A DNA stretch of 64,000 nt, from IMG/VR virus record IMGVR_UViG_3300037466_003379, positions 32,001 through 96,000 of that record; one strand, given 5' to 3'. The stretch is from a virus. The position numbers and the translations under genes are program-made. Below are positions 1 to 15,793 of the stretch, piece after piece; the stretch's first letter is position 1; every line of letters starts with the position of its first letter. The notes under the pieces were generated by a model that saw nothing but the letters and a program-made list of their open reading frames with translations, was not told the DNA's origin and searched no databases.

Positions 1-443
1 AGCCCCGTCGCCGGGTCGAACGTGAGGCCCGGCCACACCAGGTCCTCGAACAGCGGGTTCTCCTGCATCACCGTCACGACCGCGCGGGCGGCGTTCCGGT
101 CGTGCGTCGGCCGGATGTCGACCGCATCGGCCGGCAGGAGCAGCGCGGCGGTGAGCTGCGGGGCGATGTTCATCGCCGAGCGCGTGGTCTGCCGTCCGCC
201 TGGCGCGCACACGATCGTCGCCCGCCACCCGTCGGGGATCTGCTCGACGTCGACCAGCCGCGAGTTCGGCAGCAGCCCGTTCGGCCCCGACACGTGGGCC
301 GCCCACTGGGCCTCCAGCCACGTCGCGTACTCGTCGAGCTCGGGCTCGAGCACGGGCGCCGGCGCGCGCAGCTCCCACCTCCGCCAGTACGGCCACGACG
401 CCGCGGCCATGCCGAGGGCGCAGAGGGTGTCCGGATCAAGCAT
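1..443 (-). CDS. TraB/FtsK-SpoIIIE-like plasmid transfer protein, N-proximal part (runs off the window)
   Basis: Not in the ORF track. Hand translation: MLDPDTLCALGMAAASWPYWRRWELR...WAAHVSGPNGLLPNSRL...AVDIRPTHDRNAARAVVTVMQENPLFEDLVWPGLTFDPATG. This resembles the segment preceding the ATPase domain in actinomycete TraB proteins. Walker motifs would lie outside the window. Confidence 0.6.
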   Translation of the reverse strand, partial: MLDPDTLCALGMAAASWPYWRRWELRAPAPVLEPELDEYATWLEAQWAAHVSGPNGLLPNSRLVDVEQIPDGWRATIVCAPGGRQTTRSAMNIAPQLTAALLLPADAVDIRPTHDRNAARAVVTVMQENPLFEDLVWPGLTFDPATG

Positions 444-777
444 CGGCAGCCACCCACAGAGCCCAGACCGCGGCGAAGCCGCCGAACAGAGCGGCCTCCC
501 CGGGGTGGCGGCGCCGCATCCGGGCCTGCCCGACCAGGACGACGGCGGCGATCAGGACGAGCATCGCGACCGACCACGGCGACTGGCCGTGCCGGGCGGC
601 GAGGCGCTCGACGAGCGTGCAGCCCCACACGAGGGCGATCCCGACGAGCGGAGCCAGGCCGCGGCGCGCACGGAACAGGCGCGACCGCAGCCGGGACATC
701 GCGGACGGCTTCGGCTCCGGCATCTGCGGGACGACGTAGATCGGGGCGGCGGGCTTGGCCTTCGACCAGAGCGCCAC
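436..777 (-). CDS. Membrane protein; possibly the detached N-terminal TM region of the TraB-like protein
   Basis: RBS AAGGAGAG before GTG; about 3 hydrophobic segments; stop overlaps the downstream ATG (ATGCTTGA). Confidence 0.65.
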   Translation of the reverse strand: MALWSKAKPAAPIYVVPQMPEPKPSAMSRLRSRLFRARRGLAPLVGIALVWGCTLVERLAARHGQSPWSVAMLVLIAAVVLVGQARMRRRHPGEAALFGGFAAVWALWVAADA

Positions 778-866: not shown

Positions 867-1931
867 TCAGGCGGACTGATCCAGGTAGGCGTCACGCTGT
901 GCGGCGTGCTGCGCCTCCTGGTGCGCGGCGAGCAGGTTCCCGTGCCGCATGTGCACGTTCGTCTGCACCGTCGCGGCGTGCTCCTGCAGCTCGACGAACT
1001 CGGCCAGAGACGCCGGGTCCATGTCCTTCGCCGACAGGCCCTCACCCATCGCGGCGAGGTCGGCATTGAACTGGTTCACCAGCCGGTAGAAGGCGGGGAT
1101 CGACGCGGCGTCCCGGTCGACGTTCGCGTTGGTGTTGGTCGGTGCAGTCACGGGGGTGGTCCCTTCGGTGTCAGCCGCCGGGGCGGCCGGGGAGGTGGTC
1201 GGGTCGGTCGGTTGGGAGGCGCCGTCGCCGCCCTTCGGGGTCGGTGTCGGCTGCGGTGCAGCCGGGGTCGGATCGGCCGTACGGCCCAGATCGCGGGGGC
1301 CGCTGTTCGGAGGAGTGCCGTCCGGCGTGCGGGGCCGGTTCTGGACTCCGCATGCGCACTGGTCGCACTGGCAGCCCCGGGCCCCGTCGGTGTCGCGGTC
1401 GAGCGACAGGTGCCCGCACGCCGGGCAGGTGACGCGCCGGTCGCGCCGCCGGACCGCTGCGGATCGGTGGTCGGTGCCGGGCGGGAACCGGCGGCGGTCC
1501 CACTCGGCCTGCTGCAGCTCCCGCTGCCGCCGCCGCTTCGCCGCGGTAACCGCGTCAGAGCCGTAGTCGGCCACGTCCTCGACGCGGTCACGGAACCAGG
1601 CGAGCGGGCCGCGCTTCCCGCTGGACGAGCCGAACGGCTGAGCCTGGCGCATCCGGCGCCTGGACGACGCGGCCGGCCTGGACGACGTCCAGCCTCCAGC
1701 CGTCCCGCCTCCAGGGCTGGACGTCCAGCCGGAGCTGGACGGGCTGGACGTCCTGGACGATCCAGTCCCACGGGATCCAGCCGTCCCGCCCGCCCGGGTC
1801 CGACCGGAGCTGGACGAGCTGGACGACCCGTTCCCGGTGATCAGCCCTCCAGGCGTCCCGAGGGCGTCCAGGTGTCCAGTCGCCCGCATGATCCAGTAGG
1901 CGATCAGGACGCAGCCGAAGAACGGGTCCAT
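867..1931 (-). CDS. Transfer-region protein (TraA-like architecture), low-complexity middle, CxxC cluster
   Basis: ATG at 1931 coupled by TGATG to the upstream gene; helical C-terminus of the kind that precedes traB in actinomycete elements. Confidence 0.6.
   Translation of the reverse strand: MDPFFGCVLIAYWIMRATGHLDALGTPGGLITGNGSSSSSSSGRTRAGGTAGSRGTGSSRTSSPSSSGWTSSPGGGTAGGWTSSRPAASSRRRMRQAQPFGSSSGKRGPLAWFRDRVEDVADYGSDAVTAAKRRRQRELQQAEWDRRRFPPGTDHRSAAVRRRDRRVTCPACGHLSLDRDTDGARGCQCDQCACGVQNRPRTPDGTPPNSGPRDLGRTADPTPAAPQPTPTPKGGDGASQPTDPTTSPAAPAADTEGTTPVTAPTNTNANVDRDAASIPAFYRLVNQFNADLAAMGEGLSAKDMDPASLAEFVELQEHAATVQTNVHMRHGNLLAAHQEAQHAAQRDAYLDQSA
1621..1871. repeat. CTGGACG/CGTCCAG repeat array 1 (intragenic)
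   Basis: Hand count: 9 CTGGACG and 3 CGTCCAG in about 250 bp. Confidence 0.85.
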
Positions 1932-2341
1932 CAGCGCACCGCTCCGGACACGAGGTTGGACGCCCCGTTGGACAGGCTGTGCGACGCCGTCGAGACGATG
2001 CCCGGGATGGTGCCGCCGACGCTGGCCGCGACGATCGGCAGGAGCAGCGCGGCGACGGCGGTCATGCGGGTCGCGGCGCCCTTGTGCTTCGGCCACAGGT
2101 CGTGGACGACGACGAACAGCAGCACGATGAACAGCAGCACGCCGATCCCGGCGCCGATGATTGCGCCGGCGAGGCCGAGGAACATCGACAGCAGGCTCCC
2201 CAATCCGCCACCGGCGAATGCACCCCCTGCGGCGAACCACAGAAGCGCCGTGAATTTCGGCATCTTCCGCTTCCACATCAGAAGTGCGCCGAGGACCAGG
2301 AGCACGAGCCCGGTCAGCGAGAATCCGAGTGCCTGGAGCAT
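1931..2341 (-). CDS. Multi-pass membrane protein (spread/transfer accessory-like)
   Basis: MLQALGFSLTGLVLLVLG...; about 4 TM segments; TGATG coupling. Confidence 0.75.
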   Translation of the reverse strand: MLQALGFSLTGLVLLVLGALLMWKRKMPKFTALLWFAAGGAFAGGGLGSLLSMFLGLAGAIIGAGIGVLLFIVLLFVVVHDLWPKHKGAATRMTAVAALLLPIVAASVGGTIPGIVSTASHSLSNGASNLVSGAVR

Positions 2342-2841
2342 CAGCCGGTCACCCCTCCGACGGTCTTCACGATGAGCACGAGCGCGATCAGTGCGGCCGC
2401 GACTCCGGCGCGGGCCTTCCGCTCGAACAGGAACGCGGCGAAGTACAGGACGACGGTCGCGGGAACGGACCCGACCGCGAAGGGCAGGTCGAGGAGCGCG
2501 CACTCCCAGCGGCGGCCCGCCGCCCAGGACTCGCTGACGGCCTCGCAGTGGTAGCTGAGGACCTCCGCGGGGCTCGGGGGGCGCTGCTCCCAGAACGTGC
2601 CCGCCCGGCCGTCCTCGGGGGCGCTGGGGGCCTCCCCGGTGCCGCGGTGGCCGTCCCGGAACGGGCTGGAGAGCGCGCCCCAGACGGAGCGGCCTCGCGT
2701 ACGCGTGCGCGCGGGCGCGCGCGGCCCCGCGTTGGACCCCTCGGGGGTGGGGGCCTCCGGGTTGCCGTTGCCGTTGCCGTTGCCCCCCTCCCCCGCGGGG
2801 TAGGCGGGCTGCCAGGTCGACTCGTCGGCGGTCGTGGTCAT
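2341..2841 (-). CDS. Membrane protein, transfer region
   Basis: MTTTADESTW...; ATGA overlap; two C-terminal TM segments. Confidence 0.7.
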   Translation of the reverse strand: MTTTADESTWQPAYPAGEGGNGNGNGNPEAPTPEGSNAGPRAPARTRTRGRSVWGALSSPFRDGHRGTGEAPSAPEDGRAGTFWEQRPPSPAEVLSYHCEAVSESWAAGRRWECALLDLPFAVGSVPATVVLYFAAFLFERKARAGVAAALIALVLIVKTVGGVTG

Positions 2842-3089
2842 GCTGCCGATCCCTTCGTCTCGATCGCGGCGATGAGGCCGCCGATGGTCGTGAGCGCTTC
2901 CTCGGCGAGGGCCTGGACGAGCGCGGGCGGTGCGTGGCGGATGACGGCGGCGAGGTGCTCGCCGCGGACCCGGACGGCGGCGGCCGGGTCGGGGGCCTGG
3001 GCGACCCGCTCGTCGAAGAACGTGGTCCGGCGCGTGGCCGCGGCGACGGGGCCGAGGACCTTGCCGGTGATCTTGCGCCTTCCGGGCAT
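2838..3089 (-). CDS. Hypothetical protein
   Basis: Coding-like ORF, translationally coupled, RBS GGCGGAG. Confidence 0.65.
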   Translation of the reverse strand: MPGRRKITGKVLGPVAAATRRTTFFDERVAQAPDPAAAVRVRGEHLAAVIRHAPPALVQALAEEALTTIGGLIAAIETKGSAA

Positions 3090-3103
3090 TTCTCCGCCTT
3101 TTC

Positions 3104-3331
3104 TTATTTACCCGAAACGTAATTGCCGATAACATTTCCGCGGGAATCGAGCAATTCAAGCTCGTATTCGCCGACCCGGCCGCGGCCATCCCGACCAGCC
3201 ACGTTCTCCAGCGCCCTCCGCAGAACCTCGTCCGAGTCGCCCTTCGCGAAATCGACGTGGATCATGATTTCGCCGCGCTCGATCATGTAGCCATTTCGGC
3301 GGACCCGGCATTTCACCAGCTCGGCCGCCAT
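3104..3331 (-). CDS. Small hypothetical protein (lower GC)
   Basis: MAAELVKCRVRRNGY...; TGATG coupling to the upstream gene. Confidence 0.6.
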   Translation of the reverse strand: MAAELVKCRVRRNGYMIERGEIMIHVDFAKGDSDEVLRRALENVAGRDGRGRVGEYELELLDSRGNVIGNYVSGK

Positions 3332-4086
3332 CACACGGCCGCCTTCGTGAGGTGCTCGTCGGCGATCTTGATCAGCCGCTTCACCGGGCCCTCGCCGAGC
3401 CCGAGCTCCTGCATCAGCTTCGTCCGGCCGAGGCCCTCTCGGCGGAGCTTCACCGCCCGCTGGATCGTCACCCGGTCGAACTCGTCCGAGTCGCCCGGGA
3501 CGTCGTCCTGGACGTCGCCGGGACGTCCAGCGTCCAGCTCGTCCAGCTCGTCCCGTCCAGCGTCCAGCTCGTCGGGGGCGGAGCCGTCCAGCTCCTCCTG
3601 CTCGTCGCCGTCCAGCTCGTCCAGGTCCGGCCGTCCAGCGTCCAGGTCCTGGACGTCCAGCCGTCCAGCGTCCAGCCGTCCAGCGTCCTGGGCCTCCGGA
3701 CCGTCCATGTGCAGGACGGTCGCCAGGACGGGAGGCGGCAGGATCGCCAGCCCGACCGACGCGACCACCCAGGCGCCGCGTCCAGCGTCCACCGCGGCGG
3801 CGGCGTGCTCCAGCGCGTTGCCGACCATCGACACGAAGATCAGCGACAGCGACAGCCGACGGCCGACGGTCCGCTCGGTCGCAGTCGAGCTGCGCCGGCG
3901 CCAGGCGATCGTCCCGGCGAGCGCGCCCGCGTCGATCAGGACGGGCACGAGCCACGCGGAGTGCTCGGCGACACCGACGCGGACCGCGAGCGCCGCCAGG
4001 GCGTCGAAGCTCAGCCACGCACAGGCGACCGCCACGGCGAGCCGCGAGAGCGCCAGCGGGGCGCGGTCAGTGATCTTGCTCCACAC
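3331..4086 (-). CDS. DUF2637-like (Spd-type spread) membrane protein with C-terminal HTH-like segment
   Basis: WLSFDALAALA...AWLVPVLIDAG motif, 4 TM, acidic LDAGR repeats, C-terminal GLGRTKLMQELGLG; GTG with GAGAGG RBS. Confidence 0.7.
   Translation of the reverse strand: MWSKITDRAPLALSRLAVAVACAWLSFDALAALAVRVGVAEHSAWLVPVLIDAGALAGTIAWRRRSSTATERTVGRRLSLSLIFVSMVGNALEHAAAAVDAGRGAWVVASVGLAILPPPVLATVLHMDGPEAQDAGRLDAGRLDVQDLDAGRPDLDELDGDEQEELDGSAPDELDAGRDELDELDAGRPGDVQDDVPGDSDEFDRVTIQRAVKLRREGLGRTKLMQELGLGEGPVKRLIKIADEHLTKAAV
3508..3785. repeat. CGTCCAG(C) repeat array 2 (intragenic)
   Basis: Hand count: 14 CGTCCAG in 3524-3683, one more at 3779, and 2 inverted copies. Confidence 0.9.
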
Positions 4087-4150
4087 GGTGGAACCTCTCG
4101 GGGTTGCGTGCGCGCGGTCGCGCACGGGCGCGTGCACGCGCGAGGACGGG

Positions 4151-4555
4151 TCAGGCAGCAGCACGCCGGCGACGGCGGACGCTGCGGATCGGAATGACGG
4201 GGGCGAGGCCCTGGGAGGCCGGAGGGGTCGGGCCGACGCGGAGCCACGCCCGCAGCTCCGGGCCGATGCGGTACCGCCAGACGACGAGGAACACCGCCGT
4301 CCCACCGGACGCCCACGCCCCGGCGGTCCCACCGAGGTGCGCCAGCTCGTACGTGGACGCGGCGATCCACAGCACGCACGCCGGGGCCGGGCTCATGCCG
4401 TCTCCGATCGGAGCGACCTTCGGGACGGGCCCGAACATCCGGACCAGCCGCCGCGCGGTGAGCCGCCGGGCCGACCGGCGGACCGCTCGCAGCTCGGGGC
4501 CGTCCGGCACGTCGGCCAGGCAGCGGCCGTCCTCGTCGCGCTCGCGCTCGATCAC
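4151..4555 (-). CDS. Membrane protein
   Basis: GTGA overlap with the upstream stop; two hydrophobic segments. Confidence 0.55.
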   Translation of the reverse strand: MIERERDEDGRCLADVPDGPELRAVRRSARRLTARRLVRMFGPVPKVAPIGDGMSPAPACVLWIAASTYELAHLGGTAGAWASGGTAVFLVVWRYRIGPELRAWLRVGPTPPASQGLAPVIPIRSVRRRRRAAA

Positions 4556-4839
4556 AGCTTCGCCAGCTTCCAGGTGCCCAGCAGCGCGGCAGGAGCGAAC
4601 AGGGCGAACGGCGCGGCCAGCGCCACCGGCAGGCCGCCGGTCGCGGTCGCCACGTGGTCGCCGATCAGGCCGAAGAAGGCCAGGACCAGCGCCGCCATCA
4701 CCCACCGCACGACCGCGGCCTCCGGCAGCGGCGGCGCCGGGGCGCACGGGTCGAACGGCTCATCGTCATCGTCGACGGTCCAGGGGTTGAGGTCGTCGGG
4801 CTGGGGCTGGGGCTGGGCTTCGGGGTCCGTGCAGGTCAC
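4552..4839 (-). CDS. Small two-TM membrane protein, first gene of the transfer-like operon
   Basis: GGAGG RBS, acidic N-terminus, 2 TM. Confidence 0.65.
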   Translation of the reverse strand: MTCTDPEAQPQPQPDDLNPWTVDDDDEPFDPCAPAPPLPEAAVVRWVMAALVLAFFGLIGDHVATATGGLPVALAAPFALFAPAALLGTWKLAKL

Positions 4840-5472: not shown

Positions 5473-6036
5473 ATGGGTGAGCTGCTCGATGTGCAGGGCC
5501 TGGTCGACGTGCTGAACGAGGGCTCCAGCTCCTCCGGTGACGTGATCTTCCGGCTGGAGCAGATCCCTGAGTACACGGTCGAGTCCGACGGCGGCGACTT
5601 CCAGGCGTGGTCCCGCGGCGTCCGGGAGCCGAACTGGGACCGCAAGCGCGGCTACACGGACCTCCTGGAGGCCCGCACCGCAGCCGGGGTCACCTCGCAG
5701 CGCGTGCGCGTCTTCTCGCCGAACCTGACCGACTACGAGCGCTACGCCTGCGAGTGGGGCTACGCGATCAACGGCCAGTACGGCGAGGACATCCGCGTGC
5801 TGCACCGCGGCGAGCATCGCGTGCCGCCGCTCCTCGGCTTCGACTACTGGCTCCTCGGCCGCGAGACCGTGGTGCGCATGCACTACGACGAGGTCGGTCG
5901 CTTCTGCGGCGCCGAGCTGGCGCCCGAGCTGCTCCGCCAGGTCCTCCGCGAGCGCGACGCGCTGTGGCAGGTCGCGGAGCCGTTCGACACCTGGTACCAG
6001 CAGCACCCCGAGTTCAGACGGCGATTGGCGGCCTGA
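5473..6036 (+). CDS. DUF6879-like protein
   Basis: FRLEQIPEY, QRVRVFSPNLTDYERY, GEDIRVL, DYWLLG, MHYD motifs. Confidence 0.75.
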   Translation: MGELLDVQGLVDVLNEGSSSSGDVIFRLEQIPEYTVESDGGDFQAWSRGVREPNWDRKRGYTDLLEARTAAGVTSQRVRVFSPNLTDYERYACEWGYAINGQYGEDIRVLHRGEHRVPPLLGFDYWLLGRETVVRMHYDEVGRFCGAELAPELLRQVLRERDALWQVAEPFDTWYQQHPEFRRRLAA

Positions 6037-6042
6037 CCTGCG

Positions 6043-6894
6043 ATGACAGACAGCACTGCGGAGGAGCGGTCCGAGCGGAAGTTCGGGCCGCTCCTTCGTG
6101 CTGCACGGGAGGCGGCCGAGCTCCGCCAGCGGGACGTCGCGGACCGCAGCGGCATCCCGCAGACCCGGCTGTCCCGCATGGAGAAGGACCCGCCGCTGGC
6201 CATGCCCACGCCGGAGCAGGCTCGCACGCTGGCCGACCTCTACCAGCTCGACGACGATGACCGCGCGTTCATCCTCCAGGCCGCAGACGACCACGCAGGC
6301 CGGAAGGACCGCCGCTATCACGTCATGGCCGGGACGAACGTCCTCAGCACGCAGCGGCTGTTCACGCTCCTCGAGCGGGAGGCCAAGCGTCTCCGGGCCT
6401 TCTCTGCCGGCGTCGTCCCCGGATCCGCGCAGACACCCCGGTACGTCGCCGCGATCATGGGCGAGGACGACGAGGCCGGGCCCAGCACGCAGGCGCGGCT
6501 CCCCCGGCTGATCGGGCATCCGGCGAACGCCGGCAAGCAGTACGAGCTGGTCCTCACCGAGTCGGCCGCCGTCATCGCGCTCGCCGCGGACAACGTGATG
6601 GCCGAGCAGTTCGAGGAGCTGGTCCGTCTCTCGGAGCGCCCGAACGTCGACCTCCGGATCATCCGGCGCGGTACGCGGCTCACGCCCTGGACGGTCCCCG
6701 CCATCACCATCTACGACGACGGCCCGGTGGTCCTCGGCCAGCTCCTCGACGGGTACATCCGGTTCGACGAGGGCGAGGACCTCGCCACGAAGTACATCGC
6801 CGAGTTCGAGCGACTGCAGGCCGCGGCGGCAGGTGGCGACGAGGCACGCGAGGCACTCCGGGACATCGCAGCCTGGTATCGGTCGCGGGATTGA
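6043..6894 (+). CDS. XRE-family HTH regulator with DUF5753-like C-terminal domain
   Basis: LRAAREAAELRQRDVADRSGIPQTRLSRME HTH; VPGSAQTPRY, VMAEQFEEL, PNVDLRII. Confidence 0.85.
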   Translation: MTDSTAEERSERKFGPLLRAAREAAELRQRDVADRSGIPQTRLSRMEKDPPLAMPTPEQARTLADLYQLDDDDRAFILQAADDHAGRKDRRYHVMAGTNVLSTQRLFTLLEREAKRLRAFSAGVVPGSAQTPRYVAAIMGEDDEAGPSTQARLPRLIGHPANAGKQYELVLTESAAVIALAADNVMAEQFEELVRLSERPNVDLRIIRRGTRLTPWTVPAITIYDDGPVVLGQLLDGYIRFDEGEDLATKYIAEFERLQAAAAGGDEAREALRDIAAWYRSRD

Positions 6895-7333: not shown

Positions 7334-7373
7334 CCCCTCCCCGCTCCGCTCCGGCGGTAGCGGTCTGACCTGC

Positions 7374-7638
7374 GTGTTGCACTGCAACATCGCGACATAG
7401 GAACACCCGCACACTGCGACGGCGTCACGGTGTGCGGGTGTTCTGCTGTTGCGGCGTTGCTCTGTCGCGTTGTGCCCCTGTCGCACCGCGACTCCGTTGC
7501 GGTGTTGCTGCGACACGCCGTTGCGCTGTGCGCCTGTCGCACCGTCACAGTGCTGCTACGTTGCCCAGCGACACTGCGACACCCGAACAGAGCAACGGTG
7601 TGCCACCCACACACCGTGTCGCTGTGCCACTGCAACAC
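7374..7638. repeat. Centromere-like (parS/parC) array of degenerate 8-bp units in alternating orientation
   Basis: Strict 8-bp phasing: CTGCAACA TCGCGACA TAGGAACA CCCGCACA CTGCGACG, then inverted TGTGCGGG TGTTCTGC TGTTGCGG CGTTGCTC TGTCGCGT; directly upstream of parA. Confidence 0.8.
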
Positions 7639-7674
7639 GACCCCAACGCGCCCGACCCGACCCCGAGGTGATCA

Positions 7675-8463
7675 GTGCCTGCCGAGACGATCTGCATGGC
7701 GAACTTCAAGGGCGGGGTCGCGAAGTCGACGACGTCCGTCAACGTGGCCGCCACGCTCGCCCAGCGCGGCCATCGGACGCTCCTGGTCGACTGCGACCCG
7801 CAGGCCAACTCCAGCGAGATGTTCCTCGACGAGGACGCCATCGAGATGGACCTCCGCTCGATCATCGTCGAGAAGGAGGAGACCGAGAAGGTCATCCAGC
7901 AGACGCGGATCGGGAACCTCGACGTCCTGCCGGCCAGCTTCGACCTGGCGTTCCTGGACAAGGAACTCGTCGTGTCGCCGAACGGCGTGCAGCGCATCGA
8001 CCGCGCGCTCCGGCCCGTCCGCGAGCTGTACGACTACATCGTGATCGACACCGGCCCGAACCTGTCGCACCTGACGCTGGGCGCGCTCGCCGCGTCCCAG
8101 CACGTCGTCATCCCGGTCTCCGCGACCGTGTGGGCGTCGAAGGGGCTGCTCAAGTTCGTCCGGTGGATCGACGGCAACCGCGACGAGGAGGTGCTCGCCG
8201 CCGAGCTTCTCGGCCTCGTCGCGACGATCGTGCAGCCGAGCACCCGGATCGGGCGCGCCCTGCTCGAGGACCTGCCGCAGTCGGGCATGCCGAGCTTCCG
8301 CACCTTCATCCCGCGGCGGATCAAGGCTGAGGACGCCGTTATGGACCGGCTCGTCGTGGGGGAGCCTGGCGTCGACATCAGCCTCACCACGGCCTATCAG
8401 GATCTGACGACCGAGCTGGTCGAGCGGATCGCGAAGGCGAAGGGGCCACGCCATGCCCGGTAA
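7675..8463 (+). CDS. parA: ParA-family partition ATPase
   Basis: Deviant Walker A KGGVAKST, LVDCDPQAN, Walker B YIVIDTGP; no N-terminal HTH (type Ib-like). Confidence 0.95.
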   Translation: MPAETICMANFKGGVAKSTTSVNVAATLAQRGHRTLLVDCDPQANSSEMFLDEDAIEMDLRSIIVEKEETEKVIQQTRIGNLDVLPASFDLAFLDKELVVSPNGVQRIDRALRPVRELYDYIVIDTGPNLSHLTLGALAASQHVVIPVSATVWASKGLLKFVRWIDGNRDEEVLAAELLGLVATIVQPSTRIGRALLEDLPQSGMPSFRTFIPRRIKAEDAVMDRLVVGEPGVDISLTTAYQDLTTELVERIAKAKGPRHAR

Positions 8464-8839
8464 GAGCCGCGGCTTCGGCGGGAACCTCCTCGGCGGGACC
8501 GTCAGGCCGATCCCTGACGACGACGAGCCGACGCCCGCGCCCACGACCACCCCGGAGCCCGCTCCGGCCCCGCCAGCGCAAGCTGAGGCGACGCAGCAGG
8601 CCGCCCCGGCGCCGCGGCCCCGAGCAGTCCCCGATCCGGAGCCGGAGCCGACCCCGGTCTCTGAGTCCAGCCGCGCTCGGAAAGGGCCGCCCGCGACCAT
8701 CCGCCTGAACGGCACGGCGGGGGAGGCTCTGTGGCAGGCGTACCTCGAAGCCAAGGCGCGCGACCACTTCCTCAGCTATCGGCAGTTCGCCTCCGACGTC
8801 GTCATGGACGGACTCATCCGCCAGAAGCGGCGCCGCTGA
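8453..8839 (+). CDS. Putative centromere-binding partner of ParA
   Basis: Overlaps the parA end; Pro-rich linker; short C-terminal strand-helix-helix (ATIRL...ALWQAYLEAK...SYRQFASDVV). Confidence 0.7.
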   Translation: MPGKSRGFGGNLLGGTVRPIPDDDEPTPAPTTTPEPAPAPPAQAEATQQAAPAPRPRAVPDPEPEPTPVSESSRARKGPPATIRLNGTAGEALWQAYLEAKARDHFLSYRQFASDVVMDGLIRQKRRR

Positions 8840-8896: not shown

Positions 8897-8993
8897 GCGT
8901 GACTAGCCCTAGCGCGGAACCCAGATCCGACCTTCTCGCGCAGTCACTCCAGGACCACTCGGCCCCGGCCTCTACGGAGGTCGGGGCCTTTTC
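8897..8993 (+). ncRNA. Candidate small structured RNA / attenuator leader
   Basis: Starts just after TATAAT; GTGACT/AGTCAC and GCGCGGAA/TTCTCGCGC pairings; ends in the hairpin GGCCCCGGCCTC-TACG-GAGGTCGGGGCC-TTTT. Confidence 0.4.
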
Positions 8994-9114
8994 GTTAGCG
9001 GCCGTAACCAACCGCCCACAGCGGACGATCAACTACCCGAACGCCGCCCGAGCCGTTGACACCCCCAGCGGCCCGAAGCGTGCTCCCCGGCACCTGAAAG
9101 TGAGTTACCCCCCG

Positions 9115-10659
9115 ATGGCTCACCCTGCTCTGCCCATGCCCGAACGCGCCGAATCCCCGTCCGGCCGCCACCACCGCCCCGAGATCTCCATCCCGGCCCA
9201 GCGCGCCGCGGCCGAGGACATCACCCAGGCGATCCCGAAGGTCCGCGCCGACTGGCGCGAGGCGCCCACTACGCGCTTCCCAGCCGTCCAGCGGCTGGTC
9301 GAGGTGACCCGCGCGCTGCCGCGCGTCCCTCGCGGCGTCGCGCTGCGCCGGCCGAACCTGGAGACCGAGGTGACGGTCAAGGCGAACCCGTGGCTCGTCG
9401 CCTTCCTGTTCGCCGTCGTCGGCGCCGCCGCAGCCGCATGGTTCTCGTGGCGCGGAGCCCCGTCCTGGTCGATCTACGGCATCGCCGTCTCGGTCCTCCT
9501 CGGCGCGAAGCTGCTGCTGTCGCTGCTCCCGCCGCCCCGCTGGGAGCCCGCCCCCGAGGGGAAGCGGGTCTGCGTCGTCGTCCCGATCTTCAACGAGGAC
9601 CCCGAGATCCTCGCCCGCTGCCTCGCCTCGATCGACGCCCAGACTTACCAGCCGACCCACGTCCGGATCATCGACGACGGCTCCTCCGCCCCCGAGGCCC
9701 ACAACTACGCGATCCAGTGGGCGATGGACCGCGCCAACGCCCGCGTGATCTTCCAGCACAACGCCGGCAAGCGTGAGGCGATGGGGCAGGCGTTCCGCGA
9801 GCTCGGCGAGCAGGTCGACCTGTTCGTGTGCGTCGACTCCGACACGGTCCTCGAGCCCGAGGCCATCCGCGAGGGCCTCGCCCCGTTCTCGGACCCGCGC
9901 ACCGCCGCCGTCACCGGCACCGTCGTCGCCCTCAACCAGGACCGCGGCCTGCTGCCCGGCCTGCTCGACCTGCGGTACGTCAACGCCTTCCTCTACGAGC
10001 GGGCCGCCTACAGCCGCCTCGGCTCCGTCCTCTGCGTGTGCGGCTCCCTGGCGATCTGGCGGGCGGACATCGTCCGCGCCCACCTCGACGACTTCCTCGG
10101 CCAGCAGTTCCTGGGGGAGCCCTGCTCGTACGGCGACGACCGGCACTTGACGAACCTGTCGCTACTGCACGGCCGCGTCGTCCTCGCGCACAAGGCGATC
10201 GCGCGCACCGCCGTGCCAGAGAAGGGCGGGCACCTGATCCGCCAGCAGGTCCGGTGGGGCCGCTCCTTCTTCCGCGAGTCCCTGTGGGCGCTGCGGAACC
10301 TGGGGCCGAAGCGCGCCGCCTGGTGGCTGTCCGCCCTGGAGTCCGTGTCCTGGGCCGGGTTCACCGTCGGCATGATGTTGTCCCTGTTCGTCCTGCCGGC
10401 GATCAGCGGGCAGGCTCACTGGCTGGACTACCTGGGCTGGGTGTTCCTCGCCGGGTACGGCCGCTCGGTGCACGTCTTCTCGGTGCGGCGCACCAGCTGG
10501 GCGCGCTGGCGGCAGGCCGCGATCTTCCTCCTCGCCCCGGCCTACGGGATGATCCACGTCCTCGTGCTGCTGCCGCTGCGGCTCTACTCCCTCGCCACGC
10601 TCCGCGCGACGAGCTGGGGCACCCGCTCCGGCGGCGTCGAGGTCGCCGAGACGGCCTGA
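9115..10659 (+). CDS. Processive GT2 glycosyltransferase, class I hyaluronan synthase/NodC-like
   Basis: PIFNED, IDDGS, NAGKR, VDSDT, CVCGSLAIWR, YGDDRHLTN, QQVRWGRSFFRE, terminal WGTR; 2 N-terminal and several C-terminal TM segments. Start uncertain (ORF open from 8899). Confidence 0.9.
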   Translation: MAHPALPMPERAESPSGRHHRPEISIPAQRAAAEDITQAIPKVRADWREAPTTRFPAVQRLVEVTRALPRVPRGVALRRPNLETEVTVKANPWLVAFLFAVVGAAAAAWFSWRGAPSWSIYGIAVSVLLGAKLLLSLLPPPRWEPAPEGKRVCVVVPIFNEDPEILARCLASIDAQTYQPTHVRIIDDGSSAPEAHNYAIQWAMDRANARVIFQHNAGKREAMGQAFRELGEQVDLFVCVDSDTVLEPEAIREGLAPFSDPRTAAVTGTVVALNQDRGLLPGLLDLRYVNAFLYERAAYSRLGSVLCVCGSLAIWRADIVRAHLDDFLGQQFLGEPCSYGDDRHLTNLSLLHGRVVLAHKAIARTAVPEKGGHLIRQQVRWGRSFFRESLWALRNLGPKRAAWWLSALESVSWAGFTVGMMLSLFVLPAISGQAHWLDYLGWVFLAGYGRSVHVFSVRRTSWARWRQAAIFLLAPAYGMIHVLVLLPLRLYSLATLRATSWGTRSGGVEVAETA

Positions 10660-10664
10660 GAACG

Positions 10665-10710
10665 ACGAAGAGGCCCCCGGCCGCCGTGTGGCGGCCGGGG
10701 GCCTCTTCGT
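10665..10710. terminator. Bidirectional intrinsic terminator between convergent genes
   Basis: Perfect 21-bp stem ACGAAGAGGCCCCCGGCCGCC / GGCGGCCGGGGGCCTCTTCGT. Confidence 0.85.
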
Positions 10711-14562: not shown

Positions 14563-14575
14563 CGGGGCTCCTCGG

Positions 14576-15166
14576 TCAGTAGGGGGCGTGCCAGGCGCAC
14601 GTCCACCACGTGCCCCAGGAGCCGACGGAGTTGTTCGTGGTGAGGTTCAGCGACGCCCCGGAGTTCTGAAAGACGCCGACGTAGAGCGACGCCCCGGCCT
14701 GCAGGTGCTCGTAGGCCACGACCTGGTGGTGGTAGGCGCTGGTGGAGCCCAGGTTCTGCGTCGTCGTCGCGACGACGTTCAGCGGGTCCGCGATGCCGTT
14801 GATGAGGATCTGCACGACCCGCTCGGACGCGGCCGCGGACGCCCACCACGCCTGGGCCATGATCCGGTACCAGCCAGGCGTCTGGATCACCATGTGATCG
14901 GCGGGGGAGCCCGGCCACATGCCGTCGTTGTCGAAGACGACGTTATTCCAGGTGACGATCTGGTTCGTGCCGCCCGCCCCGGTCGGGACGGAGAAGTTGC
15001 TGGTCAGGTTGACCTTGCAGATCGGCTTCGTGGAGTAGCCCGCCGAGGCGGGCTTGCCCAGCAGGTTCTGCGACAGCGCGTCGAGGTTGAAGGACAGCCG
15101 GTTCAAGTCGGCCTGTCCGACGAGCGTGCCGTCGACGAACGTCGGGTTGGCGATGGTGGCGGGCAC
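14576..15166 (-). CDS. Tail-tip/receptor-binding-like protein, paralog 2
   Basis: PTFVDG...DLNRLSFNLDALSQ...TKP...IQTPGWY...WGTWW..WHAPY. Confidence 0.8.
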   Translation of the reverse strand: MPATIANPTFVDGTLVGQADLNRLSFNLDALSQNLLGKPASAGYSTKPICKVNLTSNFSVPTGAGGTNQIVTWNNVVFDNDGMWPGSPADHMVIQTPGWYRIMAQAWWASAAASERVVQILINGIADPLNVVATTTQNLGSTSAYHHQVVAYEHLQAGASLYVGVFQNSGASLNLTTNNSVGSWGTWWTCAWHAPY

Positions 15167-15184
15167 GCCGGCCTCCGCTCTCGA

Positions 15185-15793
15185 TCAGTAGGGGGCTTCG
15201 TAGGTGACCGACATCCATGTCCCCCACGCGGAGGAGGAGGCGGCCGCGGTCGCCTGGGGGAGCAGGTTCAGCGCAGCGCCCGATGCCTGGTAGGTGCGGC
15301 CGAGGATGTTCGTGTTGAAGGCGGCGTGCACCCACGCCGAGACCTGCAGCCGCTGGTTGTTGTTGATCCGCATCAGGGTGTTGTGGGTGGCGACGACGTT
15401 GGCGTTCGCGGTGCCGTTGACGCAGATCGAGATGGCGCGCTCGGACGGGGCGAGAGCGCCCGGGTCCGACTGGAAGTCGTATGCCACCTGGAGCTCGACG
15501 CGGTACCAGCCGGGGGTGAGGATCAGGAACGTCGTCCCGACGTTGATCGAGAAGTGGTGGTCGGAGTCCACCTCTTCGAGGTCCCAGTTGATCACCGTGT
15601 CTGTGGCGTTCAAGATCGACTGAGTGTTCAGGAGCCGCGCCTTCGTCGCGGGCCTCTGGGTCGCCCCATCGGACAGCGGGTGCGCCGTCCCGAGCTGGGC
15701 GATCGTGTCGAGGTTCGTCGCGATCGTCTGCAGGTTCGCCGCCGTGGGCACCGTGCCGTTTGTGAAGCTCGGGATGCTGCTCAGCGACGGCAC
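15185..15793 (-). CDS. Tail-tip/receptor-binding-like protein, paralog 1
   Basis: PSFTNG...NLQTIATNLDTIAQ...QRP...ILTPGWY...WGTWM..YEAPY. Confidence 0.8.
   Translation of the reverse strand: MPSLSSIPSFTNGTVPTAANLQTIATNLDTIAQLGTAHPLSDGATQRPATKARLLNTQSILNATDTVINWDLEEVDSDHHFSINVGTTFLILTPGWYRVELQVAYDFQSDPGALAPSERAISICVNGTANANVVATHNTLMRINNNQRLQVSAWVHAAFNTNILGRTYQASGAALNLLPQATAAASSSAWGTWMSVTYEAPY

Follow-up and report, generated by a model that had tools for sequence, protein, structure and literature searches.

The TraB translocase of Streptomyces plasmids binds clustered 7-9-bp repeats, the clt loci, which consist of 8-bp repeats in pSVH1, nine 9-bp repeats in pJV1 and 7-bp repeats in pWTY27, and which, where characterised, adjoin or overlap the 3′ end of tra or lie near korB (PMC4447253; PMC3583192; PMC4170104). 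A different type of cis-acting site is found on pIJ101, where spdA2 contains the sps palindromes in its coding region and SpdA2 itself binds them; the published experiment on these sites used synonymous recoding (PMC4170104). The SpdB2 protein of pSVH1 binds double-stranded DNA non-specifically, oligomerises, forms pores and interacts with TraB, and no cognate site is known for it (PMC4447253). Conjugation extends to Streptomyces plasmid-phages, including pZL12 and pFP4 (PMC3583192; PMC4170104). Here we describe a 64,000-nucleotide stretch (hereafter the window) that comprises bases 32001-96000 of IMG/VR virus record IMGVR_UViG_3300037466_003379, a 104,105-bp contig. The element is a siphovirus-type actinomycete phage-plasmid with a lifestyle like that of pZL12, and its transfer operon contains two arrays of the heptamer CGTCCAG, one inside a gene that we call gene A and the other inside the gene for a SpdB2-like membrane protein of the DUF2637 family. 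The reading that we favour, at a probability of roughly 0.4, is that the arrays are putative cis-acting docking sites in coding DNA that would be read by the predicted C-terminal helix-turn-helix (HTH) domain of the DUF2637 protein.

Two CGTCCAG arrays in linker-coding DNA

The initial annotation of this DNA had proposed a check of word enrichment across the element, and the outcome is clear. CGTCCAG occurs 67 times in the window, where 21.5 ± 5.0 copies are expected and the largest count in any shuffle is 36, and it is the most clustered heptamer of the 104-kb contig, with 17 copies as compared to 7 for the next unrelated word. When the whole contig is divided into 300-nt bins, two bins are rich in the word (16 and 12 copies) and every other bin holds at most 2. 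The approximate counts first given for the two regions, about 12 copies in 1621-1871 (array 1) and about 17 in 3508-3785 (array 2), proved to be exact (Table 1). The two arrays had also been called oppositely oriented, and for the majority of copies this holds: 9 of the 12 copies in array 1 read CTGGACG on the plus strand, that is, CGTCCAG on the minus strand, which is the coding strand, whereas 15 of the 17 copies in array 2 read CGTCCAG on the plus strand and 2 are inverted. Array 1 is nevertheless mixed, as its other 3 exact copies read CGTCCAG on the plus strand, where it carries a further eight one-mismatch copies in the orientation of array 2, and as it includes a 32-nt segment shared with array 2 in direct orientation. 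Within the core of array 2 the copies are spaced by 7, 8, 9, 14, 15 and 24 bp. The eighth base of the word is C or G, the base preceding it is free, and no genome-wide polarity of the kind known for KOPS was detected for CGTCCAG.

Table 1. Window coordinates of the arrays and of the transfer-operon genes around them.
Feature	Position	Strand	Remarks
Array 1	1621-1871	both	12 exact copies in 251 bp; encodes gene A residues ~21-104
Array 2 core	3508-3683	both	16 exact copies in 176 bp, 14 of them CGTCCAG on + (CTGGACG on the coding strand)
Outlying 17th copy of array 2	3779-3785	+	within the coding region of the last transmembrane helix
12-bp palindrome CTGGACGTCCAG	1717-1728 (array 1), 3649-3660 (array 2)		one per array
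Gene A	867-1931	-	354 aa; assigned from third-position GC frame, translation and the L008 homologue
Gene for DUF2637 (SpdB2-like) membrane protein	3331-4086	-	251 aa from GTG at 4086; Pfam PF10935
traB, 5′ part	1-443	-	563 aa; extends 1248 bases before the window start; Walker A GAPGMGKT
Detached membrane part of TraB	436-777	-	113-aa membrane protein; overlaps the traB start
Four small genes between the arrays	1931-2341, 2341-2841, 2838-3089, 3104-3331	-	all kept in L008
Two small operon genes	4552-4839, 4151-4438	-	first in operon order

Each array is translated as part of a low-complexity linker, and the reading frames are those first described, Ser-rich in gene A and LDAGR/ELD in the DUF2637 gene. 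Array 1 falls in the Ser/Gly/Thr-rich linker that directly follows the single transmembrane (TM) helix of gene A, and its copies translate as S-S-S, S-S-R, T-S-S or G-W-T. Array 2 encodes residues ~135-193, the acidic linker of the DUF2637 protein; here frame 0 gives L-D-x and frame 1 gives A-G-R, and the six A-G-R copies are written with the rare codons GCT (5%) and GGA (3.6%). The initial annotation had placed the constraint on DNA rather than on protein, and recoding bears this out. When the protein sequence was kept and codons were redrawn from the element's own usage, array 1 exceeded its null (12 copies versus 1.35 ± 1.0, with a maximum of 6 in 3000 recodings), as did the core of array 2 (16 versus 5.3 ± 1.7, with a maximum of 11 in 3000). 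To correct for the choice of word, the best heptamer of any kind was counted in each of 1000 recoded sequences; none of these reached the observed value, either for array 1 (12 versus 3.9 ± 0.9, maximum 7) or for array 2 (16 versus 6.3 ± 1.2, maximum 10). As an internal control, 18 other low-complexity segments of 60 aa from the element, some of them of lower entropy, contained at most 5 copies of any heptamer, as compared to 15 and 9 here. Therefore, the excess of the word in both arrays sits at the DNA level, beyond codon-matched nulls.

An excess at the DNA level might nonetheless have a neutral origin. Array 2 could have grown by in-frame slippage in units of 9 and 15 bp, after which a piece of it was copied, inverted, into the linker of gene A, and later slippage together with gene conversion kept the two arrays alike. 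Indeed, the arrays share a perfect inverted match of 19 nt (1807-1825 with 3531-3549), an inverted match of 25 nt at 92% (1801-1825 with 3609-3633) and the direct segment of 32 nt at 88% identity (1686-1717 with 3662-3693), and the antisense of GAG-CTG-GAC repeats is TCC-AGC-TCG, which encodes Ser-Ser-Ser. However, a combination of direct and inverted shared segments calls for several independent events, no such arrays have formed in the element's other low-complexity linkers, and the word occurs in two frames, at spacings of 7 and 8 bp, with rare codons and in six separated places. We consider this account somewhat unlikely, and the comparison with related modules below bears on it from both sides.

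Arrays across related TraB modules

Close relatives of the element were not found by megablast against plasmids and phages. Protein searches returned the query itself or one 50% relative only, and scans of IMG/VR, genomes and metagenomes led to the same single 50% element. This closest relative (L008, an IMG/VR and metagenome element) has a TraB that is 50% identical, and it possesses the four small genes, gene A, the split membrane protein and TraB, but no gene for the DUF2637-HTH protein. It contains three scattered copies of CGTCCAG in 12 kb and no array in the 10 kb upstream of its traB, with 0.5-1.3 kb of sequence covered downstream of that gene. As compared to the gene A homologue of L008, the core of array 1 corresponds to an insertion of 44 aa. 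Since L008 lacks both the arrays and these 44 gene A residues, the arrays are lineage-specific additions, and their absence from the nearest relative, like the insertion itself, is in keeping with a neutral origin. Five copies of GACGTCC at the 5′ end of the L008 traB were considered as a possible counterpart and rejected, as they encode E-D-V in the commonest codons and do not amount to a DNA-level signal.

The TraB relatives found numbered 376. To look beyond this pair we compared distant TraB loci taken from viral contigs and plasmids. The DUF2637-family gene, or the 700 bp that follow it, holds the top-ranking local cluster of a heptamer in 11 of 14 loci with a TraB module. At three loci the array is significant against the best-heptamer recoding null, namely CGGCCTC in L063 (17 versus 7.1 ± 1.6), CGGACAC in L067 (8 versus 3.5 ± 0.6) and CCGACAC/CCCGACA in L061 (6 versus 3.7 ± 0.7). 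These arrays are located in the 3′ part of the DUF2637-family gene, each word again occupies several reading frames, with rare codons in some, and both orientations are found in two of the three loci. Similarly, the protein layout of a TM domain, a linker and a small C-terminal domain recurs in these loci, and the C-terminal domain of L061 has weak HTH matches. The initial annotation had suggested examining whether homologues carry different words at the same position, and they do; on the sequences compared, the place of the array is fixed while the word changes among related modules. This recurrence of DNA-level arrays of other words in the equivalent gene of distant modules speaks against a purely neutral origin.

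These comparisons also bear on which protein might read the arrays. In L065, L066 and L067 the winged helix of TraB is near-identical, with the recognition helix ARKTVENT.S. Nevertheless, the arrays of these three loci differ: L067 carries CGGACAC, one locus has CGTCGAC downstream of the gene, and L066 has no significant array. The DUF2637-family proteins of the same three loci end in different domains.

Several other repeats were noted in the loci examined. In three Streptomyces linear plasmids, 5-7 copies of CGAAACG lie at the 5′ end or promoter of the DUF2637 gene (L003, 2886-3076; L073, 1565-1755; L074, 976-1176), which is possibly an operator and is placed otherwise than the arrays described here; two of these plasmids have, in addition, five copies of TGCCGAA in the 3′ half of the same gene. 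A viral contig with a TraB-like gene (L068) carries nine copies of CGGGGAA inside the 3′ end of traB (8954-9131) and ten of ACGGGGA about 1 kb downstream (10394-10671), which is the classical position of clt, unlike that of the arrays in the present element. Lastly, pAmyja1 has a stretch of 1.2 kb without annotation in which CGGGGAC (eight copies), GCGGGGA (seven) and the overlapping word CGTCCCC (six) are concentrated at 3598-4480, a candidate origin or centromere.

Candidate readers and alternative functions

The initial annotation had named TraB and a DUF2637-HTH protein as possible readers, and the element does encode both a TraB-type winged HTH and a DUF2637 protein with a predicted HTH. 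The TraB model from AlphaFold2 (AF2) has a mean predicted local distance difference test (pLDDT) score of 91; residues 491-554 fold as a winged helix at the C-terminus, and the motor resembles that of E. coli FtsK (Foldseek E 8e-16). The protein thus has the features of its family, a membrane part, an FtsK-like motor with Walker A and a C-terminal winged HTH, except that the membrane part is encoded by a separate, overlapping open reading frame. The same split is seen in L008 (9640-10008 and 10001-11698), and in most relatives the two parts are joined in one protein of 650-750 aa. A hairpin of 27 nt, with arms 89% complementary and a 3-nt loop, lies 1306-1250 bases before the window start and ends 1 base before the traB stop; it is likely the terminator of the transfer operon.

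The second candidate matches PF10935 with E 2.8e-6 and 27.8 bits, above the gathering cut-off of 22.8, and as a multi-TM protein encoded in an operon with traB it belongs with the DUF2637/SpdB2-like proteins. Its start is placed in the database at 4164, which would give 277 aa. Four TM helices are followed by the disordered acidic linker, for which AF2 gives no secondary structure at residues 136-204, and by three C-terminal helices (residues ~205-250, coded by 3334-3474) modelled at a pLDDT of 81-90. The nearest folds of these helices are all DNA-binding HTH domains. By the positive-inside rule we infer that the linker and the HTH would face the cytoplasm.

Could the arrays be a classical clt? 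They would then be recognition repeats for the C-terminal winged helix of TraB, and arrays of opposite orientation might load TraB hexamers in opposite directions, which would pump both arms of the replicon. Both arrays do present several 7-9-bp repeats within ~50-300 bp, with a copy number and density like those of clt loci, on a replicon that encodes a TraB-type translocase with an FtsK motor and a confidently modelled winged HTH, and this is the class of protein for which such binding is described. Moreover, they are the sole strong heptamer arrays in the 104 kb, and since no repeat cluster is present at or past the traB stop, they are the only visible candidate if TraB has a clt here. Their position, however, is not that of clt, for they lie inside other genes 1.2-3.3 kb upstream of traB, array 1 being 1.2 kb and array 2 3.1 kb from its start, and do not adjoin or overlap the tra 3′ end as the repeats of pSVH1, pJV1 and pWTY27 do (pIJ101 being an exception). 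The near-identical recognition helices of L065, L066 and L067, alongside their different or absent arrays, weigh against TraB as the reader, as does L008, in which the recognition helix is similar to that of the element and yet no array is present in the sequence covered (0.5-1.3 kb of it downstream of traB), although few loci were compared; nor does the word have a genome-wide polarity. A TraB-clt interpretation is hence unlikely in our estimation. The constancy of the TraB helix beside changing arrays, together with the joint absence from L008 of the DUF2637-HTH gene and the arrays, argues against TraB and for the HTH, which is encoded immediately behind array 2 and would be the better fit. 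Taken as a whole, the earlier interpretation is partly supported.

According to the docking reading, the arrays would be written into the disordered linkers of two transfer-operon membrane proteins, in coding DNA tolerant of any sequence, with array 2 placed directly 5′ of the HTH-coding part of its reader's own gene. The HTH domains of many copies of the membrane-anchored DUF2637 protein may bind the closely spaced words and so hold the replicon at the membrane beside the TraB motor and other Spd-like proteins, and the motor would then pump double-stranded DNA across a septum or into a mating partner. Docking of this kind could give the transfer and spread machinery specificity for its own replicon, and the mostly inverted array 1, 1.7 kb away, might widen or loop the complex. 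That the arrays are bound, which protein reads them and that they serve transfer are each points that we infer.

A number of observations weigh against this reading. The arrays are not conserved in the closest relative, and there is no close relative to show purifying selection. The nearest HTH folds of the DUF2637 C-terminal helices are not significant matches. The comparisons that set the HTH above TraB come from four loci, and in two of seven phage-type loci (L066 and L064) the array is not significant against the best-heptamer recoding null. Low-complexity linkers are places where repeats arise anyway, so that the positional coincidence is partly confounded, and in-frame units of 9 bp (LDE) and 15 bp (LDAGR), which slippage could amplify, make up much of array 2. 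In addition, a triple-word pattern of CGTCCAG forms plain microsatellites in coding DNA at 51 unrelated loci of IMG/VR, which suits a neutral origin. CGTCCAG itself was accordingly rejected as a shared signal, as none of these 51 loci carries a homologue of the module.

Other cis-acting functions were also considered, in particular pairing of the two arrays in mRNA, a partition centromere and a replication origin. The arrays are complementary on one transcript, with a predicted duplex of -261 kcal/mol as compared to -192 ± 8 for shuffles, and no part of the operon pairs better with array 2 than segments of array 1 do, as expected by construction; RNA pairing would, however, leave unexplained the arrays of L061 and L067, each of which has a single orientation. 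With respect to partition, the genes for ParA and its 128-aa partner lie at a distance of 4 kb. However, parA is 4-6 kb from the arrays rather than next to them, and a ParABS centromere was rejected because a separate repeat field immediately precedes parA. An origin was rejected because a Rep-like winged-helix gene with its own palindromic iterons is located elsewhere, 18 kb away, and a pac or cos site was rejected at a distance of ~35 kb from the terminase gene. In our view such functions are very improbable for the arrays.

The repeat field upstream of parA (7675-8463) spans 7360-7650 and contains TGCGACA and GCGACAC, four copies each, along with GTTGC-type words; it is likely a partition centromere or operator. 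The parA partner is encoded at 8453-8839 and is rich in Pro and Glu. The palindromes of the Rep-like gene are five copies of ~17 bp, GGTCCCGCTCTGGGACC, at contig positions 15190-15333 (~16.7 kb before the window start). They translate as MVPERD repeats and fall within the linker of the encoded protein, which has 379 aa and a winged helix at its N-terminus (contig 14575-15714, minus strand). They resemble the origin iterons of phage lambda O in lying within an initiator gene, and are probably the origin in the plasmid state.

The transfer operon and its place in the element

The minus strand codes the whole of 1 to ~4840, as judged from third-position GC. The order of the operon (DUF2637, small genes, a gene-A-like gene, TraB) is syntenic with modules of large linear plasmids of Streptomyces and Kitasatospora, whose TraB proteins are ~30% identical. 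The first two of the small genes between the arrays (1931-2341 and 2341-2841) encode membrane proteins. Gene A encodes an N-terminal TM helix, the Ser-rich linker that contains array 1, a Cys-rich segment (CPACG..C.C..C.C), a Pro/Thr-rich stretch and a conserved, helical C-terminal domain; none of gene A, the small genes and the TraB C-terminus was assigned to a Pfam family. Divergent to the operon, at 5473-6894, are a DUF6879 gene and an HTH_31-DUF5753 regulator gene. This pair also flanks the module in L008 and is near the module in the Streptomyces plasmid L003, and is a candidate regulator of the operon. Elsewhere the contig encodes virion proteins (tape measure protein, major head protein, protease and large terminase) as well as ParA with its small partner, DpdA, a UvrD-type helicase and DUF3560. 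By large terminase the nearest plasmid is pAmyja1, a circular plasmid of 92.5 kb from Amycolatopsis japonica, at 63.5% identity.

In Streptomyces conjugation it is still an open question how plasmid DNA is recognised by Spd proteins, and a word array in the gene of an SpdB2-like HTH protein offers a testable hypothesis. A working cis locus would also mean that a virus genome can travel as naked double-stranded DNA as well. For annotation, the lesson is that regulatory or docking DNA may hide in low-complexity coding linkers that are usually dismissed. A broader proposal, which we put forward as distinctly improbable, is that DUF2637/SpdB2-like HTH proteins are membrane-anchored, sequence-specific receptors that read a lineage-specific word in their own gene. 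This would constitute a second, hitherto unrecognised cis locus of double-stranded DNA transfer in actinomycetes beside the TraB clt. In the present phage-plasmid, a bipolar docking zone composed of the two mostly inverted arrays would deliver the genome of the phage to the TraB pore for virion-free movement between hyphal compartments or cells.

How then does the locus compare with described systems? Descriptions of arrays of this kind in pZL12, pFP4 or pAmyja1 were not found in the accessible literature. With pZL12 the element has in common the combination of virion genes and plasmid maintenance in one replicon, which in pZL12 is accompanied by tra-dependent conjugation. With pAmyja1 it shares virion and DUF3560 genes, but tblastn with the element's TraB gave no match on that plasmid at E <= 1e-5, and neither a DUF2637 gene nor a TraB-like one is annotated there. 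The DUF2637 protein is like SpdB2 of pSVH1 in being a four-TM membrane protein encoded in an spd operon next to traB, and it differs in being shorter and in ending in a discrete predicted HTH. In phage lambda, origin iterons lie inside the initiator gene O. The present arrays resemble this design, which the element's own Rep-like gene appears to repeat, in that repeats occupy the linker-coding part of the gene of their putative binder; the function in lambda is replication, whereas here the gene encodes a membrane protein of a transfer operon. The likeness to sps and SpdA2 is that of a candidate cis site within the spread-module gene of its putative binder, as array 2 is carried by the gene whose 3′ part encodes the HTH, and a site inside the binder's own gene is made plausible by both sps in spdA2 and the palindromes of the Rep-like gene. 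However, sps consists of 1-3 copies of a conserved 12-bp palindrome, CGTCACGTGACG, and its binder SpdA2, a small soluble protein, has an effect on stability. That palindrome is not found in the arrays, which have instead 12-17 mainly direct heptamers of a lineage-specific word, CGTCCAG(C/G), a different 12-bp palindrome and a membrane-anchored candidate binder. Like clt, finally, the arrays consist of many clustered repeats of 7-9 bp on a replicon with an FtsK-like TraB that ends in a winged helix, and their proposed role is to confer specificity for the own replicon on a DNA-transfer machinery. Unlike clt, they are intragenic and lie within two genes located upstream of traB rather than at the tra 3′ end, they form two mostly opposite arrays with more copies (12 and 17), and the comparative evidence points away from the TraB winged helix. 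The arrays are, in sum, candidates for clt- or sps-like cis arrays of a phage-plasmid, hidden in the linker-coding DNA of a SpdB2-like gene.

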